Below the pieces are notes generated by a model that saw only the letters and a program-made list of their open reading frames with translations, made no database searches and was not told where the DNA came from. Positions 1-6,476 of a stretch of 7,280 bases of DNA are shown here, in pieces. A program made the translations under genes and the position numbers. This DNA comes from a virus. Taxonomy: Duplodnaviria; Heunggongvirae; Uroviricota; Caudoviricetes. The DNA lies in IMG/VR virus record IMGVR_UViG_2537561605_000013; one strand, 5' to 3'. Positions within the stretch are counted from its first letter, which is position 1. The number at the start of each line of letters is the position of its first letter.

Positions 1-151
1 GAAAAACCGTGCAGAAGTGGAACTGGCCACACTAACGTGGGTGGACTGGTATAACAATCGACGATTGCTGGGAAGGCTGGGCCATACTCCTCCGGCAGAA
101 GCAGAAAAAGCTTATTATGCTTCCATCGGAAACGATGATCTGGCAGCCTGA
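1..151 (+). CDS. IS3-family transposase (OrfB, integrase-like DDE), C-terminal fragment; 5' end lies outside the window
   Basis: Frame 2 reads ...KNRAEVELATLTWVDWYNNRRLLGRLGHTPPAEAEKAYYASIGNDDLAA to a TGA stop at 149-151. The WVDWYNNRRL...PPAEAE tail is typical of IS3-family OrfB C-termini. Recognised by eye, not searched. Confidence 0.7.
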   Translation, partial: KNRAEVELATLTWVDWYNNRRLLGRLGHTPPAEAEKAYYASIGNDDLAA

Positions 152-193
152 GTTCACAGATAAAACACTCTCCAGGAAACCCGGGGCGGTTCA
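1..193. mobile_element. Right end of an IS3-family insertion sequence; exact terminus uncertain (about 160-205)
   Basis: The transposase stop is at 151, and IS3-family right inverted repeats normally end within tens of bp of that stop in ...CA. A candidate ...GGTTCA ends at 193. The left IR is not in the window, so the boundary cannot be confirmed. Confidence 0.45.
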
Positions 194-879: not shown

Positions 880-1572
880 TTAATTGTGTCGCTTAAGGGT
901 TTGTGACTGGCTGATTAAGACCTTTCCAAAGACCATAAACCGGTGTTCATTTTCGCTGGTAATTCCCCATTCACGGTAAATCTGGTTATCAGAAATCACC
1001 AGTAGTTTGTCAGGTATCATTTGCAGTCGTTTGACATATATTTTGTCATCAAAACCAAAGACATATATACCATCTCCATCAAACTGATTGATACTGACAT
1101 CAACGAAGATGAGATCTCCTGGCTCAATGGTTGGACACATACTGTCCCCACGAACGTTGATAACTTTAATGTGATTGGCTGGTCGTCCGCCGAACATTGA
1201 TACAGCATTATCAGTTCTGTATTCAATGGCATGAATCACATCAATGACATCACCGCCCTGGATAAGGCCATTTCCCGCACTGGCACTGACATCCAGCATT
1301 TCAATACGGAATACATCCTTCACCTGCGCAACATCCTCACTAATACTGTTTTTACATACAGTATTACTTTTGAAGTCTGAGGTAAAGAGATCAGCAATAT
1401 CAACACCTAAGCTCCTGGCAATATTACTCAGGGCTTGTTCAGTGAATTGTTTCTGCTTACCTGTTTCCAGGCGTGAGATATTCGCCGCATCCACTCCTAT
1501 TGCTTCAGCGAGATCGGCTATTTTCATGTTCTTCGCTTGGCGAAGTTGTCTGACTCGGTTTCCTATGTTCAT
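880..1572 (-). CDS. cI: cI-type prophage repressor with N-terminal HTH (XRE-like) and C-terminal S24 LexA-like autopeptidase domain
   Basis: 230-aa ORF. The N-terminus has IADLAEAIGVDAANISRLETGKQ (HTH). The C-terminus has GDSM (catalytic Ser) and IYVKRL (catalytic Lys region). It is divergent from a Cro-like gene across an operator-rich intergenic region. Confidence 0.9.
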   Translation of the reverse strand: MNIGNRVRQLRQAKNMKIADLAEAIGVDAANISRLETGKQKQFTEQALSNIARSLGVDIADLFTSDFKSNTVCKNSISEDVAQVKDVFRIEMLDVSASAGNGLIQGGDVIDVIHAIEYRTDNAVSMFGGRPANHIKVINVRGDSMCPTIEPGDLIFVDVSINQFDGDGIYVFGFDDKIYVKRLQMIPDKLLVISDNQIYREWGITSENEHRFMVFGKVLISQSQTLKRHN

Positions 1573-1669: not shown

Positions 1670-1930
1670 ATGCAATCACCATTACGAAATGTGCGTAAGG
1701 CGCATGGTTTCACTTTGCAGCATGTTGCTGCGGGTGTTCAAGTCAATCCAGCGACGTTGAGTCGTATTGAGAGGCTGGAGCAGATTCCATCTATCGAGCT
1801 TGCAGAACGTTTAGCCAATTTTTTTAAGGGTGAAGTCAGCGAAATGCAGATTCTTTATCCGGCACGTTTTCAATCTAGCCAAAACCAGAATGGGTTTAAA
1901 CCACAGGAACAGGAGGTAAGCCGTGGGTAA
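1670..1930 (+). CDS. Cro-like small HTH regulator
   Basis: 86-aa ORF with an HTH (FTLQHVAAGVQVNPATLSRIERLEQ), divergent from the cI-like gene and preceded by an RBS. Confidence 0.8.
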   Translation: MQSPLRNVRKAHGFTLQHVAAGVQVNPATLSRIERLEQIPSIELAERLANFFKGEVSEMQILYPARFQSSQNQNGFKPQEQEVSRG

Positions 1931-2474
1931 GCATCACTGGAAAGTAGAAAAACAGCCTGAGTGGTACGTGAAAGCTGTCAGAAAAACTATCGCAGCGTTG
2001 CCGGGGGGGTACGCTGAAGCTGCTGACTGGCTGGATGTAACAGAGAACGCATTATTTAACCGCCTTCGTGCCGATGGCGATCAGATTTTCCCGCTGGGAT
2101 GGGCAATGATTTTGCAACGTGCTGGTGGAACTCACTTCATTGCTGACGCTGTGGCGCAGTCTGCAAATGGCGTCTTTGTGTCTCTTCCTGATGTCGAGGA
2201 TGTGGACAACGCCGATATCAACCAACGCCTGCTGGAGGTCATTGAACAGATCGGCAGTTATTCAAAACAGATTCGTTCAGCAATTGAAGACGGTGTAGTG
2301 GAACCGCATGAGAAGACAGCAATTAACGACGAGCTGTACCTCTCAATTTCGAAGCTGCAGGAGCATGCAGCACTGGTCTACAAAATTTTTTGCATTTCAG
2401 AAAGTAATGACGCCCGCGAGTGTGCAGCTCCGGGCGCCGTGGCGTGTCGTGACTGTGGAGAAACTAACGCATGA
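1923..2474 (+). CDS. CII-like phage regulatory protein (Phage_CP76-like)
   Basis: 183-aa ORF with a GTG start at 1923, preceded by AGGAGG (1911-1916), overlapping the Cro stop. The motif [22 protein letters not shown]...IADAVAQS resembles the CP76 family of CII-like regulators. Family call is from memory. Confidence 0.7.
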
Positions 2475-2809: not shown

Positions 2810-2829
2810 AGGTCGGTCATGAGCACTAA
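2650..2829 (+). CDS. Hypothetical small protein (59 aa, TTG start), or the C-terminal part of a frameshifted upstream gene
   Basis: AAGGAG at 2636-2641 sits 8 nt before the TTG at 2650. The product ...[58 protein letters not shown] is protein-like. Its stop (2827-2829) overlaps the next gene's ATG at 2819. Confidence 0.4.
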
Positions 2830-3760
2830 ATTAACCGGCTATGTATGGGATGGTTGCGCTGCGTCAGGCATGAAGTTATCCAGCGTGGCAATTATGGCCC
2901 GCCTGGCTGATTTCAGTAATGACGAAGGTGTGTGCTGGCCATCAATTGAAACCATTGCCCGCCAGATTGGCGCGGGGATGAGCACCGTCAGAACGGCTAT
3001 CGCACGGCTGGAAGCAGAAGGCTGGTTAACGCGTAAGGCGCGTCGCCAGGGTAACCGCAATGCGTCGAATGTTTATCAGCTTAACGTTGCGAAGCTTCAG
3101 GCAGCGGCATTTTCTCAACTGTCAGATTCTGACCCGTCAAAATCTGACGCATCAAAATCTGACCCGTCAAAATTTGATGCGTCGAAATCTGGCAAAAAAG
3201 CGGGTTTTCACCCGTCAGAATCTGGCGGGGATCCGTCAGTAAAATCAAAACATGATCCGTCAGATAAAAAACCTTCTCGTCCGGACGCTTCGCAACCGGA
3301 CACGCAGACGGATGAACAGGATTTTTTAACTCGCCATCCTGATGCGGTTGTATTCAGCCCTAAAAAGCGCCAGTGGGGGACGCAGGATGATTTGACCTGT
3401 GCACAGTGGCTCTGGAAAAAAATCATCGCCCTGTACGAGCATGCCGCCGAATGTGACGGCGAGGTGGTTCGTCCCAAAGAACCGAACTGGACAGCCTGGG
3501 CAAACGAAATTCGCCTGATGTGTGTGCAGGATGGTCGTACTCATAAACAAATCTGCGAGATGTACAGCCGCGTCAGTCGCGATCCGTTCTGGTGCCGTAA
3601 CGTGCTCAGCCCGTCGAAGCTGCGGGAAAAATGGGATGAGCTTTCCCTGCGCTTATCGCCGTCCGTCAGCACGTACACCGAAAAACGCGAGGACCCGTAC
3701 TTCAAAGCCAGTTACGACAACGTGGACTACAGCCAGATCCCGGCAGGATTCAGGGGGTGA
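2819..3760 (+). CDS. Phage replication initiator, lambda-O-like, with N-terminal winged-helix DNA-binding domain and an iteron-encoding linker
   Basis: 313-aa ORF. The N-terminus (VAIMARLADFSNDEGVCWPSIETIARQIGAGMSTVRTAIARLEAEGWL) looks like a replication-initiator HTH. A low-complexity linker (SDSDPSKSDASKSDPSKFDASKS...) is encoded by tandem DNA repeats, as in lambda O. Confidence 0.8.
   Translation: MSTKLTGYVWDGCAASGMKLSSVAIMARLADFSNDEGVCWPSIETIARQIGAGMSTVRTAIARLEAEGWLTRKARRQGNRNASNVYQLNVAKLQAAAFSQLSDSDPSKSDASKSDPSKFDASKSGKKAGFHPSESGGDPSVKSKHDPSDKKPSRPDASQPDTQTDEQDFLTRHPDAVVFSPKKRQWGTQDDLTCAQWLWKKIIALYEHAAECDGEVVRPKEPNWTAWANEIRLMCVQDGRTHKQICEMYSRVSRDPFWCRNVLSPSKLREKWDELSLRLSPSVSTYTEKREDPYFKASYDNVDYSQIPAGFRG
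3115..3275. repeat. Iteron array (putative ori) inside the initiator gene
   Basis: Five tandem ~15-bp units begin at about 3119, 3134, 3149, 3164 and 3180 (core (C)CGTCA(A/G)AATCTGAC). Further CCGTCAG motifs at 3211, 3233 and 3257 are interspersed with A-rich tracts. Confidence 0.7.
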
Positions 3761-3762
3761 TT

Positions 3763-4251
3763 ATGAGTCTTTTGAATGAAGTTCAGAAATTCATTGAAGC
3801 CCATCCGGGGTGTACTTCCGGAGACATTGCGGATGCTTTTGCAGGTTACTCACGGCAGCGCGTTCTGCAGTCTGCAAGCAAGTTACGTCAGAGTGGGCGT
3901 GTGGCTCACCGTTGTGAAGGAGATACACGCAGACATTTCCCGCGCCTGACTGAGAGAGCGCAGGAGCCGGAACCACAACCAGTTCGTGAAACCAGACCTG
4001 TGCGCAATTTCTATGTCGGCACTAACGACCCCCGGGTGATTTTGTGCCTGACCCGCCAGGCTGAAGAACTGGAGTCCAGGGGCTTATTCCGTCGAGCTGC
4101 AACGGTGTGGATGGAGGCATTCCGTGAAAGCCACTCCCAGCCAGAACGAAACAATTTTCTGGCGCGTCGTGAGCGGTGTTTACGGAAAAGCAGCAAGCGG
4201 GCTGCATCAGGTGAAGAGTGGTATCTGTCAGGGAATTACGTGGGGGCTTAA
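3763..4251 (+). CDS. PerC-like transcriptional regulator with an N-terminal extension
   Basis: ORF ends at TAA 4249-4251. The start is ATG 3763 (or GTG 3757, overlapping the upstream stop). The C-terminal motif AEELESRGLFRRAATVWMEAF...ARRERCL resembles the PerC/Pch family (from memory). Confidence 0.6.
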   Translation: MSLLNEVQKFIEAHPGCTSGDIADAFAGYSRQRVLQSASKLRQSGRVAHRCEGDTRRHFPRLTERAQEPEPQPVRETRPVRNFYVGTNDPRVILCLTRQAEELESRGLFRRAATVWMEAFRESHSQPERNNFLARRERCLRKSSKRAASGEEWYLSGNYVGA

Positions 4252-4904
4252 TGAGTAATAAATATTGCCAGGCGCTGGTGGAGCTGCGGAACAAACCAGC
4301 CCATGAACTGAAGGAAGTGGGCGATCAGTGGCGCACGCCGGACAACATTTTCTGGGGAATTAACACCCTGTTTGGCCCGTTTGTTCTGGATCTGTTCACT
4401 GACGGTGATAACGCCAAATGTGCCGCTTATTACACTGCGGAAGACAACGCGCTGGCGCATGACTGGTCAGAACGTCTTGCGGAGCTTAAAGGTGCTGCCT
4501 TTGGTAATCCCCCATACAGCCGCGCCAGTCAGCATGAGGGGCAATACATCACCGGCATGCGTTACATCATGAAACATGCCAGTGCCATGCGTGATAAGGG
4601 CGGGCGCTATGTTTTCCTGATCAAAGCTGCCACCAGCGAAGTGTGGTGGCCGGAAGATGCGGATCATATTGCTTTTATTCGCGGGCGTATTGGTTTTGAA
4701 CTGCCTGCCTGGTTTATCCCGAAGGATGAGAAGCAGGTGCCGACAGGCGCTTTCTTCGCTGGTGCTATTGCTGTTTTCGATAAGACCTGGAAGGGACCGG
4801 CAATCAGCTACATCGGGCGCTATGAACTTGAGGCATGTGGTGAGGCGTTTCTGGCGCAGGTTCGCCAGCAGGCAGAAAAACTGGTCAGGGAGATGGCGGC
4901 ATGA
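4251..4904 (+). CDS. Phage Dam-type DNA N6-adenine methyltransferase
   Basis: ATG at 4251 overlaps the upstream stop (TAATG). The product has the (D/N)PPY motif (FGNPPYS) and the general layout of small phage Dam-family methyltransferases. Confidence 0.8.
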   Translation: MSNKYCQALVELRNKPAHELKEVGDQWRTPDNIFWGINTLFGPFVLDLFTDGDNAKCAAYYTAEDNALAHDWSERLAELKGAAFGNPPYSRASQHEGQYITGMRYIMKHASAMRDKGGRYVFLIKAATSEVWWPEDADHIAFIRGRIGFELPAWFIPKDEKQVPTGAFFAGAIAVFDKTWKGPAISYIGRYELEACGEAFLAQVRQQAEKLVREMAA

Positions 4905-5227
4905 CGACGTTAACTCAATGCCAGCAGCAGGTGCTGGATATGCTGATTTCTTATCAGAAAGAACGTGGCTTCCCGCCAACCAATCAGGAGGTGGCAACCA
5001 TGCTGGGATACCGTTCAGTGAATGCAGAGGTGGAGCATCTTCGCGCACTGGAGAAAAAAGGCGTCATCACGATAAAGCGTGGCGTGGCCCGGGGGATAAC
5101 GCTTCATACCGCGGTGAAGGACGACGACAGCGAGGCGGTCGGGATTATCCGCGCACTGCTTGCCGGTGAGGAAAACGCAAGGCTGCGTGCAACCCACTGG
5201 TTACATGAGAGGGACCTGAAAGTATGA
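4901..5227 (+). CDS. LexA N-terminal DNA-binding-domain protein (no S24 peptidase domain)
   Basis: 108-aa ORF whose ATG overlaps the Dam stop (ATGA). Residues ~7-70 (QQQVLDMLISYQKERGFPPTNQEVATMLGYRSVNAEVEHLRALEKKGVITIKRGVARGITL) align closely with the LexA winged-helix domain. The remaining ~35 aa are unrelated to the LexA protease domain. Confidence 0.75.
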   Translation: MTTLTQCQQQVLDMLISYQKERGFPPTNQEVATMLGYRSVNAEVEHLRALEKKGVITIKRGVARGITLHTAVKDDDSEAVGIIRALLAGEENARLRATHWLHERDLKV

Positions 5228-5614
5228 AGCTGATCCTGCCTTTTCCGCCCAGCGTGAACACGTACTGGCGACACCCCAACAAAGGGGCGTTTGCTGGTAA
5301 GAGCCTGATAAGCGCGGCGGGGCGAAAATTCCAGAGCGCGGCGTGCGCAGCAATAGTTGAGCAGTTACGTCGTCTGCCGAAACCAACGTCGGCACCTGCT
5401 TCAGTGGAGATCGTGTTGTTTCCTCCGGATAACCGGATCCGCGATCTGGACAACTATAACAAAGGCGCTGTTTGACGCCCTGACCCACGCGGGTGTGTGG
5501 GAAGACGACAGTCAGGTGAAAAGAATGCTGGTGGAGTGGGGACCGGTTATCCCGGAAGGGAAGGTCGAGATCACTATCAGTAAGTACGAGAAAACGGCGG
5601 GTGCAGCCGCCTGA
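5224..5614 (+). pseudogene. rusA: RusA-family Holliday-junction resolvase, frameshifted
   Basis: Frame 1 (5224-5475) gives MKLILPFPPSVNTYWRH...PPDNRIRDLDNYNKGAV*. Frame 2 continues ALFDALTHAGVWEDDSQVKRMLVEWGPVIPEGKVEITISKYE to a stop at 5612-5614. The two parts together span a RusA-like protein. An apparent 1-nt insertion lies near 5464-5466 (AACAAAGGCGCTG). Confidence 0.7.
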
Positions 5615-5633: not shown

Positions 5634-6476
5634 ATGAATAATCTGATGGTCATTGATGGTATTGAAGTTCGTCGTGATGCTTATGGGCGTTACAGCCTGA
5701 ACGATCTGCATCGCGCAGCAGTAGCATCTGGTGCAAATGCCAGAACCAAGGAGCCGGGAAAGTTTCTTTCCAGCCAACAGATTACTGAGCTGGTTCAGGA
5801 ATTGATCGATACCCAAAATCTGGGTGTCGGTTCATTCAATGAAACTACCCAAAATTTGGGTAGTAAACCTGTCAGTAAAATAGAAGGGCGGAATGGCGGA
5901 ACATATGTCTGTAAGGAACTGGTGTATGCCTATGCAATGTGGATCAGCCCGTCATTCCATCTGAAGGTGATCCGCACTTTCGACATGGTAACCAGCGCAC
6001 CGGAAAAATTATCCGGGCAGGCTGCTGACAAGATGCAGGCTGGCGTGATTCTGCTGGACTTTATGCGCCGGGAGTTAAATCTGTCTAACTCATCAGTGCT
6101 TGGTGCCTGTCAGAAACTCCAGGAGGCTGTTGGCTTACCGAATCTGGCACCGCGCTATGCCATTGATGCTCCTGCTGACGCGCCTGATGGCTCAAGCCGC
6201 CCCACGCTATCATTGAGTGCACTGCTGAAGCAGTATGGTATCCGCCTGACAGCTAATCAGGCATATCACCAGATGGCGAAGCTGGGGATCGTTGAACAAC
6301 GTGAACGATACAGCCGCACTGCGATTAACAACATCAAAAAATTCTGGTCGCTGACAGCGAAAGGCTGCATGTTCGGCAAGAACATCACCAGTCCCGCAAA
6401 TCCGCGCGAGACGCAGCCGCATTTCTTCGAATCCCGATTCCCTGAGCTGTTAAAGCTGCTCGATACCGTTCATTGA
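5634..6476 (+). CDS. KilA-N domain protein (antirepressor-like)
   Basis: 280-aa ORF with RBS AAGAGGAG (5617-5624). The N-terminal ~110 aa (MVIDGIEVRRDAYGRYSLNDLHRAA...TYVCKELVYAYAMWISPSFHLKVIRTFD) resemble a KilA-N domain. The C-terminal domain is unassigned. Confidence 0.8.
   Translation: MNNLMVIDGIEVRRDAYGRYSLNDLHRAAVASGANARTKEPGKFLSSQQITELVQELIDTQNLGVGSFNETTQNLGSKPVSKIEGRNGGTYVCKELVYAYAMWISPSFHLKVIRTFDMVTSAPEKLSGQAADKMQAGVILLDFMRRELNLSNSSVLGACQKLQEAVGLPNLAPRYAIDAPADAPDGSSRPTLSLSALLKQYGIRLTANQAYHQMAKLGIVEQRERYSRTAINNIKKFWSLTAKGCMFGKNITSPANPRETQPHFFESRFPELLKLLDTVH

Follow-up and report, generated by a model that had tools for sequence, protein, structure and literature searches.

The stretch of DNA analysed here, a 7,280-nucleotide viral sequence (IMG/VR record IMGVR_UViG_2537561605_000013, in the following called the window), covers the region of a lambdoid prophage that holds its immunity and early-right genes. 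Within this region, between the genes of a phage N6-adenine methyltransferase (Dam) and of the Holliday-junction resolvase RusA, lies a small gene whose 108-residue product consists of a LexA-type DNA-binding domain and a short tail of its own. This protein is referred to as mini-LexA. Its gene is tightly packed between its neighbours: the stop codon of dam overlaps the mini-LexA start codon (gcATGAcg, 4901-4904), the mini-LexA stop codon overlaps the rusA start codon (gtATGAag, 5224-5227), and from the O-like replication gene to rusA each junction overlaps by 1-4 nt. No promoter-like or terminator-like signal was detected near mini-LexA on its strand. A first-pass annotation of the window had proposed that the gene is translationally coupled to dam and rusA. 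The ATGA overlaps on both sides agree with this proposal, but the rusA gene of the window is frameshifted, so that the downstream partner of the coupling is not intact here. One additional G (5464/5465), called against the near-identical gene of E. coli O157:H7 AC-3, splits rusA into two open reading frames (5224-5475 and 5357-5614) and reflects either a pseudogene or a sequencing error.

The N-terminal part of mini-LexA matches the Pfam family LexA_DNA_bind (PF01726) over its full length, residues 1-65 corresponding to positions 1-65 of the 65-position model (E 4.4e-18; 65.3 bits at a cut-off of 23.7 bits). In an ungapped alignment, 34 out of 70 residues (49%) are identical to residues 1-70 of E. 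coli LexA, and sequence similarity continues through the hinge to about residue 90. The AlphaFold model (mean predicted local distance difference test score, pLDDT, of 72) comprises three helices (residues 6-22, 28-34 and 40-52) and a two-stranded wing (56-59 and 65-68), followed by an ill-defined linker (69-74). Its head was superimposed by Foldseek on the LexA N-terminal domain (1lea/3jso) with a root-mean-square deviation of 1.5 A across 67-69 residues; the closest solved structures are those of E. coli LexA (1lea, 1jhh and 3jso; E about 1e-15). Profile search and structure prediction thus agree with the LexA winged helix recognized in the first-pass annotation, and the recognition-helix string quoted there, RSVNAEVEHLRAL, is found in the protein. 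The S24 autocleavage domain, on the other hand, is missing, as had also been claimed: Pfam did not find Peptidase_S24 (PF00717) in mini-LexA, while the same scan detected it in the neighbouring cI-like repressor. The protein terminates at residue 108 and does not reach the positions corresponding to Ser119 and Lys156. The lexA equivalog of NCBIfam (TIGR00498) was matched with 67.9 bits, which is under its cut-off of 110.95, and only over positions 1-91 of 203. Since the S24 domain, the equivalog score and a conserved cleavage site were all looked for and none of them was found, mini-LexA is not LexA proper.

Instead of the protease and dimerisation domain of LexA, mini-LexA possesses a tail for which two helices are predicted (residues 75-87 and 93-103; pLDDT about 84). 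In relatives down to ~40% identity the tail is kept, its hydrophobic pattern is retained and Ala97 and Leu101 are invariant. It could plausibly serve as a dimerisation element, as judged from the model. The earlier description of an own tail of ~35 residues that may mediate dimerisation holds insofar as the tail is conserved and a plausible predicted dimeriser; its length, however, is nearer 38 residues and is made up of the two predicted helices. In the window allele, the tail segment IRALLAGE (LLAGE) aligns with the LexA cleavage region GRVAAGEP (VAAGE), an Ala-Gly pair coming to lie on Ala84-Gly85 of LexA. A reading of this segment as a cleavage site in cis or in trans, or as a pseudo-substrate, was rejected, because the Ala-Gly pair and its flanks are not kept in the tailed relatives (LLSGGD, LLTRKE, MVERES, MIDDQP, MIAEEP) and because AlphaFold predicts the segment as helical and not as a strand-loop. 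Judging from these sequence features and from the lack of an S24 domain, mini-LexA should be insensitive to RecA*, in line with what had been assumed before.

Mini-LexA is not new as an object but belongs to a very common, already annotated family. A profile-free search of 1.84 billion representatives returned 3862 relatives. Short ones of 106-135 residues (one of 165), which align through the tail at 38-50% identity, are represented by P0123, P0126, P0129, P0133, P0143, P0163, P0165 and P0197, after which the subfamilies are named (e.g. P0133 type). Conservation among related prophages thus concerns the whole architecture: the form with 106-118 residues, including the predicted two-helix tail, persists to ~40% identity. 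The ratio of non-synonymous to synonymous substitution rates (dN/dS) was 0.08 overall, 0.02 for the head and 0.16 for the tail among 45 distinct alleles of the window type, and 0.20, 0.20 and 0.19, respectively, among 73 distinct alleles of the P0133 type. Head and tail are both under purifying selection. The gene is genuine and not a fragment, and it looks functional. The same 327 bases occur at at least 95% identity in 2227 out of 20,395 records of the E. coli collection, and the gene was found in 2233 out of 5426 complete E. coli genomes (about 40%), with a maximum of four copies per genome. Among phages, 50 records contain it, including SfV (orf42), SfII, SfIV, mEp460, cdtI, many Stx2c and some Stx2a converting phages, and phi1720a-02. 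A 100% identical gene is present in phage LC727881.1, which diverges from the window upstream of position 3685.

The names given to the gene are inconsistent. In PHROGs it matches phrog_362, a 'transcriptional repressor' (E 3.9e-58; positions 1-106 of 106), to which a distant P0165-type protein also belongs, and RefSeq lists it as 'LexA family transcriptional regulator' (WP_000210183.1). Among KF030445.1, LR595868.1, AB285204.1 and RefSeq phage records the label varies between 'LexA repressor' and 'hypothetical protein', and some records carry the wrong designations 'SOS-response repressor and protease LexA' or 'RecA-mediated autopeptidases'. The adjacent Dam is called 'phosphoadenosine phosphosulfate reductase' in RefSeq phage records. 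A full-text literature search found no experimental study of the enterobacterial mini-LexA family. Proteins of 140-350 residues (P0131, P0136, P0149, P0152, P0153 and P0159) contain two tandem LexA_DNA_bind domains and could represent LexA-head 'dimers' within one chain.

To judge the DNA-binding specificity, the recognition helix was compared with that of LexA, for which two sources name Ser39, Asn41, Ala42, Glu44 and Glu45 as base contacts (PMC3091678, PMC13416735), the exact role of Glu44 being taken from secondary citations. Window-type proteins keep four of these five residues (Ser39, Asn41, Ala42 and Glu45), while Glu44 is replaced by Val. Their usual helix reads RSVNAAVEH, compared with RSPNAAEEH in LexA, from which it also departs by Val in place of Pro40; His46 and the wing residues Arg64-Gly65-Ile66 are shared. 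The window allele carries in addition the exchange A43E (codon 43, 5027-5029; RSVNAEVEH), which is rare and occurs in two out of 83 window-type loci; the other 81 have Ala at this position and are thus nearer to LexA. Across the tailed relatives, Ser39 and Asn41 do not vary, and Ala42 hardly does. It is plausible but unproven that mini-LexA occupies host SOS boxes. The features of the window and the loci cited from relatives are compiled in Table 1.

Table 1. Positions of genes, domains and binding sites in the window and of comparable features in related loci.
Feature	Position	Strand	Basis or remark
IS3-family transposase gene, 3' end (…WVDWYNNRRLLGRLGHTPPAEAEKAYYASIGNDDLAA)	1-190		similarity to other prophages begins at 191-194
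cI-like repressor, helix-turn-helix and Peptidase_S24	880-1572	-	Pfam; RecA*-cleavable immunity repressor
Canonical SOS (LexA) box TACTGTTTTTACATACAGTA	1344-1363		inside cI-like gene; candidate target
cro-like gene	1670-1930	+	
cII/YmfL-like gene	1923-2474	+	
O-like replication initiator	2819-3760	+	
PerC-family protein, 164 residues	3757-4251	+	
Phage N6-adenine methyltransferase (Dam)	4251-4904	+	longest open reading frame from 4218; RefSeq-equivalent start 4251
mini-LexA gene, 108 residues	4901-5227	+	PHROG 362; identical to RefSeq WP_000210183.1
LexA-type winged helix-turn-helix, residues 1-65	4901-5095	+	Pfam PF01726, AlphaFold (AF2) model, Foldseek
Recognition helix, residues 40-52 (VNAEVEHLRALEK)	5018-5056	+	alignment to LexA
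C-terminal tail (residues 75-87 and 93-103 predicted helical)	5123-5209	+	AlphaFold (AF2), alignments, dN/dS
rusA Holliday-junction resolvase	5224-5614	+	frameshifted
KilA-N protein	5634-6476	+	
DUF968	from about 6484	+	extends past window end
Sister-subfamily operons, example loci	L024 9200-10327; L006 4470-5408; L007 4480-5357		
Methylase-start box in relatives	L103 13905-13924; L007 7739-7758; L013 14553; L014 13434; others		

The position of mini-LexA within the early-right operon, together with the lack of a nearby promoter or terminator, suggests that the gene is expressed after derepression of the prophage. The protein would accordingly be a delayed-early lytic product which is absent from the quiet lysogen. 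It could therefore hardly bring about, within a lysogen, the decoupling of the prophage from SOS induction that the first-pass annotation had suggested, and a role at SOS boxes, if there is any, would be a shut-off after induction.

Possible targets exist within the prophage module itself. One perfect TACTGT-N8-ACAGTA sequence is present in the window (1344-1363); it has perfect 9-nt arms (1341-1349 and 1358-1366), and none of 200 shuffles yielded such a box. It lies in the part of the cI-like gene encoding the linker between the helix-turn-helix and S24 domains (codons T-V-C-K-N-S). Homologues of cI with 69-73% identity have retained the box, and it also occurs in phage 1720a-02. As it has been kept while the flanking codons differ, it can be argued that it is a selected LexA site. 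A promoter scan revealed no convincing sigma-70 site around it. Prophage e14 of K-12 was considered as a control and discarded; its repressor YmfK is unrelated to the cI of the window and no SOS box with at least 13 out of 20 matching positions is present. In relatives, a second canonical box, ATGAAAAATACTGTAAAAATAAACAGTG, covers the first codons of an N6 methylase gene located 3' of Q, pR' and tR', and is read as T-V-x-x-N-S. When IMG/VR loci were picked by the methylase box alone, 45 out of 51 informative ones carried mini-LexA 2.7-6.4 kb upstream; selection by the cI box alone gave ten out of 11 informative loci, which is a small sample. A generic box pattern was found in other contexts in 103 of its 120 matches. 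The co-occurrence of the boxes and mini-LexA is suggestive.

The surroundings of the gene were compared in about 260 loci of mini-LexA relatives. Upstream, the neighbouring gene varies (Dam, a C5 methylase, a replication gene or a small open reading frame). In the P0165, P0143 and P0197 types, the order is a rho-independent terminator, a sigma-70-like promoter with a canonical LexA box lying across it (e.g. TACTGTTTATTTATACAGTA), in part a dinI gene, phrog_1813 and mini-LexA, followed by phrog_1212, in part rusA, DUF968 and Q. The scan of contigs for related loci comprised four loci only, that for P0197 none. The DinI homologue of the P0165 type is well supported (PF06183, E 1e-21), and phrog_1813 is probably an antirepressor, as suggested by its gene position. 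With a LexA box and, in the P0165 type, DinI in the sister operons, mini-LexA travels with other SOS-modulating functions. The same arrangement has been published for the LexA-controlled dinI-antirepressor loci of the Gifsy prophages (PMC3121763). These share with the three subfamilies the terminator, the LexA box, dinI (P0165 type) and a small protein, phrog_1813 in the subfamilies, at the position of the antirepressor (GfoA/GftA). By contrast, the Gifsy loci have been described without a LexA-like gene, and the mini-LexA gene of the window is located behind dam in the pR operon and not behind a LexA box.

Taken together, mini-LexA is very probably a sequence-specific DNA-binding regulator of the LexA type, insensitive to RecA and dimerised by its tail, which acts in the lytic programme of the phage. 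The best specific mechanism, advanced tentatively since we consider it to fall somewhat short of probable, is that of a surrogate LexA acting on operators of the CTGT-N8-ACAG type. According to this model, mini-LexA would be made only once the prophage repressor has been lost, or upon infection, and would not be inactivated by RecA*. Its tail would make the protein dimeric, and the dimer would occupy palindromes of the CTGT-N8-ACAG class, so that it could stand in as a non-cleavable LexA after destruction of the host LexA. The first targets might be the cI box and, in relatives, the methylase-start box after Q and the LexA-box promoters of the dinI/antirepressor operons; beyond these, it may also act on SOS genes of the host and on genes under LexA control in co-resident prophages. 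In favour of the model are the four retained base contacts, the canonical boxes within the module, and the co-transcription of the gene with dinI behind a LexA box in sister subfamilies.

Engineered proteins demonstrate that such an architecture can work. Fusions that join LexA's DNA-binding domain to an unrelated dimeriser (LEVI/LexRO) are dimerisation-dependent repressors at LexA-type operators (PMC7102963). A LexA head combined with a dimerising tail is thus architecturally sufficient, because these fusions repress only when they are dimeric. They and further engineered fusions, the LexA1-87-zipper hybrids, share with mini-LexA the make-up of a LexA head, a short linker and an unrelated dimerisation element, and they are not RecA-cleavable. 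They are, however, artificial and contain the unmodified LexA or LexA408 helix, whereas the helix of mini-LexA differs at positions 40, 43 and 44 and its dimerisation is only predicted. A free LexA head without the C-terminal domain also arises naturally. The LexA 1-84 fragment released by auto-cleavage still binds operators weakly and is cleared by ClpXP. Unlike this transient and rapidly degraded by-product, mini-LexA is a selected protein which has its own tail and no VAA-COOH degradation tag. From E. coli LexA itself it differs, apart from the exchanges in the helix and the replacement of the S24 protease/dimerisation domain by the two-helix tail, in being phage-encoded and expressed from an early lytic operon and not behind its own SOS boxes; the winged-helix fold is common to both.

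Several observations weigh against a surrogate LexA. Glu44 is absent from every tailed subfamily, and residues 43-46 read AVEH, AAEH, ATDM, AFEH, VLLH or VFIH depending on the subfamily, while these positions do not vary in host LexA. In the P0165 and P0197 types even Glu45 is missing, yet the SOS boxes adjoining them are canonical. These boxes are best explained as sites of the host LexA which do not co-evolve with mini-LexA. The co-occurrence of boxes and mini-LexA could equally well be due to physical linkage, as they are only 3-5 kb apart. Moreover, the sole characterised phage protein consisting of a LexA head only, gp6 of the Bacillus thuringiensis tectivirus GIL01, is an activator at a different palindrome: this truncated LexA homologue recognises GaCACAn nTGTGaC and thereby turns on the late promoter P3 (PMC6182141). 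Finally, phage phi1720a-02, in which mini-LexA is present, suppresses the induction of a co-resident prophage, but this effect is no evidence for a function of mini-LexA because Cro alone reproduces it.

The precedent of gp6 leads to the alternative that mini-LexA is a private regulator, whose specificity has drifted from the SOS box to an operator of the phage, where it activates or represses a phage promoter in lytic growth and has no direct effect on the host SOS response. The region of Q, the late promoter and the methylase, which is the sole sizeable non-coding stretch of the module, would be an example of such a site. We regard this alternative as only slightly less likely than the surrogate model. 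The variation of the helix among subfamilies, with Glu44 lost everywhere and Glu45 in some, would be expected of it, and so would adjoining SOS boxes that remain canonical whatever the type of helix. However, when mismatch-free 6+6 palindromes (spacer 0-12, +/-7 kb) were enumerated in the about 260 loci, no operator other than SOS boxes emerged, the enumeration yielding solely conserved coding-sequence palindromes and the SOS boxes. The invariance of Ser39 and Asn41 and the near-invariance of Ala42, together with the departure of the window subfamily from LexA at one of five contacts only, likewise speak against a drifted specificity, and these lambdoid phages already possess Q antitermination for their late genes. 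As to gp6 itself, both proteins are phage-encoded LexA DNA-binding domains without a cleavage domain, which are produced from an early operon after induction. They differ in that gp6 is of Firmicute LexA origin, consists of the domain alone with no helical tail, has a palindrome unlike that of LexA as its site and stands in another genomic setting. When 50,697 phage records were searched by tblastn with the 108-residue protein (E <= 0.1), neither Bacillus nor tectivirus sequences were matched, which suggests that mini-LexA has been captured independently from a gammaproteobacterial LexA. Phage regulators consisting of a LexA head only are thus already known as a kind, of which mini-LexA is an uncharacterised member.

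A farther-reaching version of the surrogate model is that mini-LexA is an SOS off-switch of the phage. The RecA*-proof protein would close the SOS operators again after induction, silence the host SOS response as well as the antirepressors and bacteriocins of rivals (competing prophages and plasmids), act on the cI and methylase boxes of its own module and thereby help to lock the lytic decision. This version is unlikely, in our view.

It is conceivable, though very unlikely, that mini-LexA is no transcription factor but an accessory of recombination which works together with RusA by targeting or tempering the resolvase. This idea stems from the near-constant position of the gene 5' of rusA in three subfamilies. 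In 83 out of 84 window-type and 82 out of 82 P0133-type loci, rusA directly follows mini-LexA, in most cases with overlapping codons, it lies at most 1 kb downstream in 56 out of 57 P0123-type and all P0143-type loci, and two very different RusA types are preceded by mini-LexA. Furthermore, Salmonella phage SPN3UB has NinB/Orf and then NinG/Rap after DinI and phrog_1813, where mini-LexA and RusA would stand. But the P0165 subfamily has no RusA in any of its 22 loci, the rusA gene of the window is frameshifted while the mini-LexA reading frame is intact, and the fold is that of a classical sequence-specific winged helix. RusA is not known to have a partner protein.

Even less credible is a role as a decoy or mimic, in which the head or the hinge-like tail titrates a LexA-binding factor or disturbs the self-cleavage of LexA without binding DNA. 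The resemblance of IRALLAGE to the LexA cleavage region and the existence of other phage proteins that bind LexA, such as GIL01 gp7, could be taken to point in this direction. They are outweighed by the divergence of this segment in the family and its predicted helical structure, and by the fact that the DNA-binding head is the part under the strongest purifying selection (dN/dS 0.02). That the gene is what is left of a captured lexA, hitch-hiking without function in the nin region, for which only the decay of the window prophage (IS end, rusA frameshift) speaks, is effectively refuted by an architecture kept to ~40% identity, by the dN/dS values of 0.08-0.20 and by its presence in 2233 out of 5426 genomes and in inducible phages.

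If binding to SOS boxes is true, induced lambdoid prophages, including the Stx2 phages of O157:H7 and the Shigella serotype-converting phages, would carry a RecA-proof substitute of LexA. This would bear on the duration of the SOS response in induced cells and on the competition among co-resident prophages, on LexA-controlled toxins, colicins and mutagenic polymerases and possibly on the timing of Shiga-toxin release, and it would account for canonical LexA boxes embedded in phage coding sequences. If mini-LexA binds an operator of its own instead, it would be the second case, besides gp6, in which LexA has been recycled independently as a regulator specific to a phage. In both cases the gene is abundant, selected and inconsistently annotated.

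Some further observations concern the remainder of the window. The prophage is decaying, as evident from the end of an insertion sequence (IS) and the frameshifted rusA. Since the IS end occupies positions 1-190 and similarity to other prophages begins only at 191-194, the prophage is truncated left of cI. The IS/prophage junction is present in no complete E. coli genome of the collection. At its C-terminus, the PerC-family protein, whose gene is translationally coupled to the O-like gene and to dam, carries a PerC domain (PF06069, E 9e-9), and its N-terminus gives a weak MarR/BilQ-like match; PerC/Pch-type regulators are important in the control of the locus of enterocyte effacement of enterohaemorrhagic E. 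coli. Within the O-like gene, iteron-like inverted repeats (GTCAGATTCTGAC / GTCAAAATCTGAC / GACGCATCAAAATCTGAC…; 3121-3183) probably mark the origin of replication, and the KilA-N gene contains a perfect palindrome, ACTACCCAAA-T-TTTGGGTAGT, at 5844-5864.

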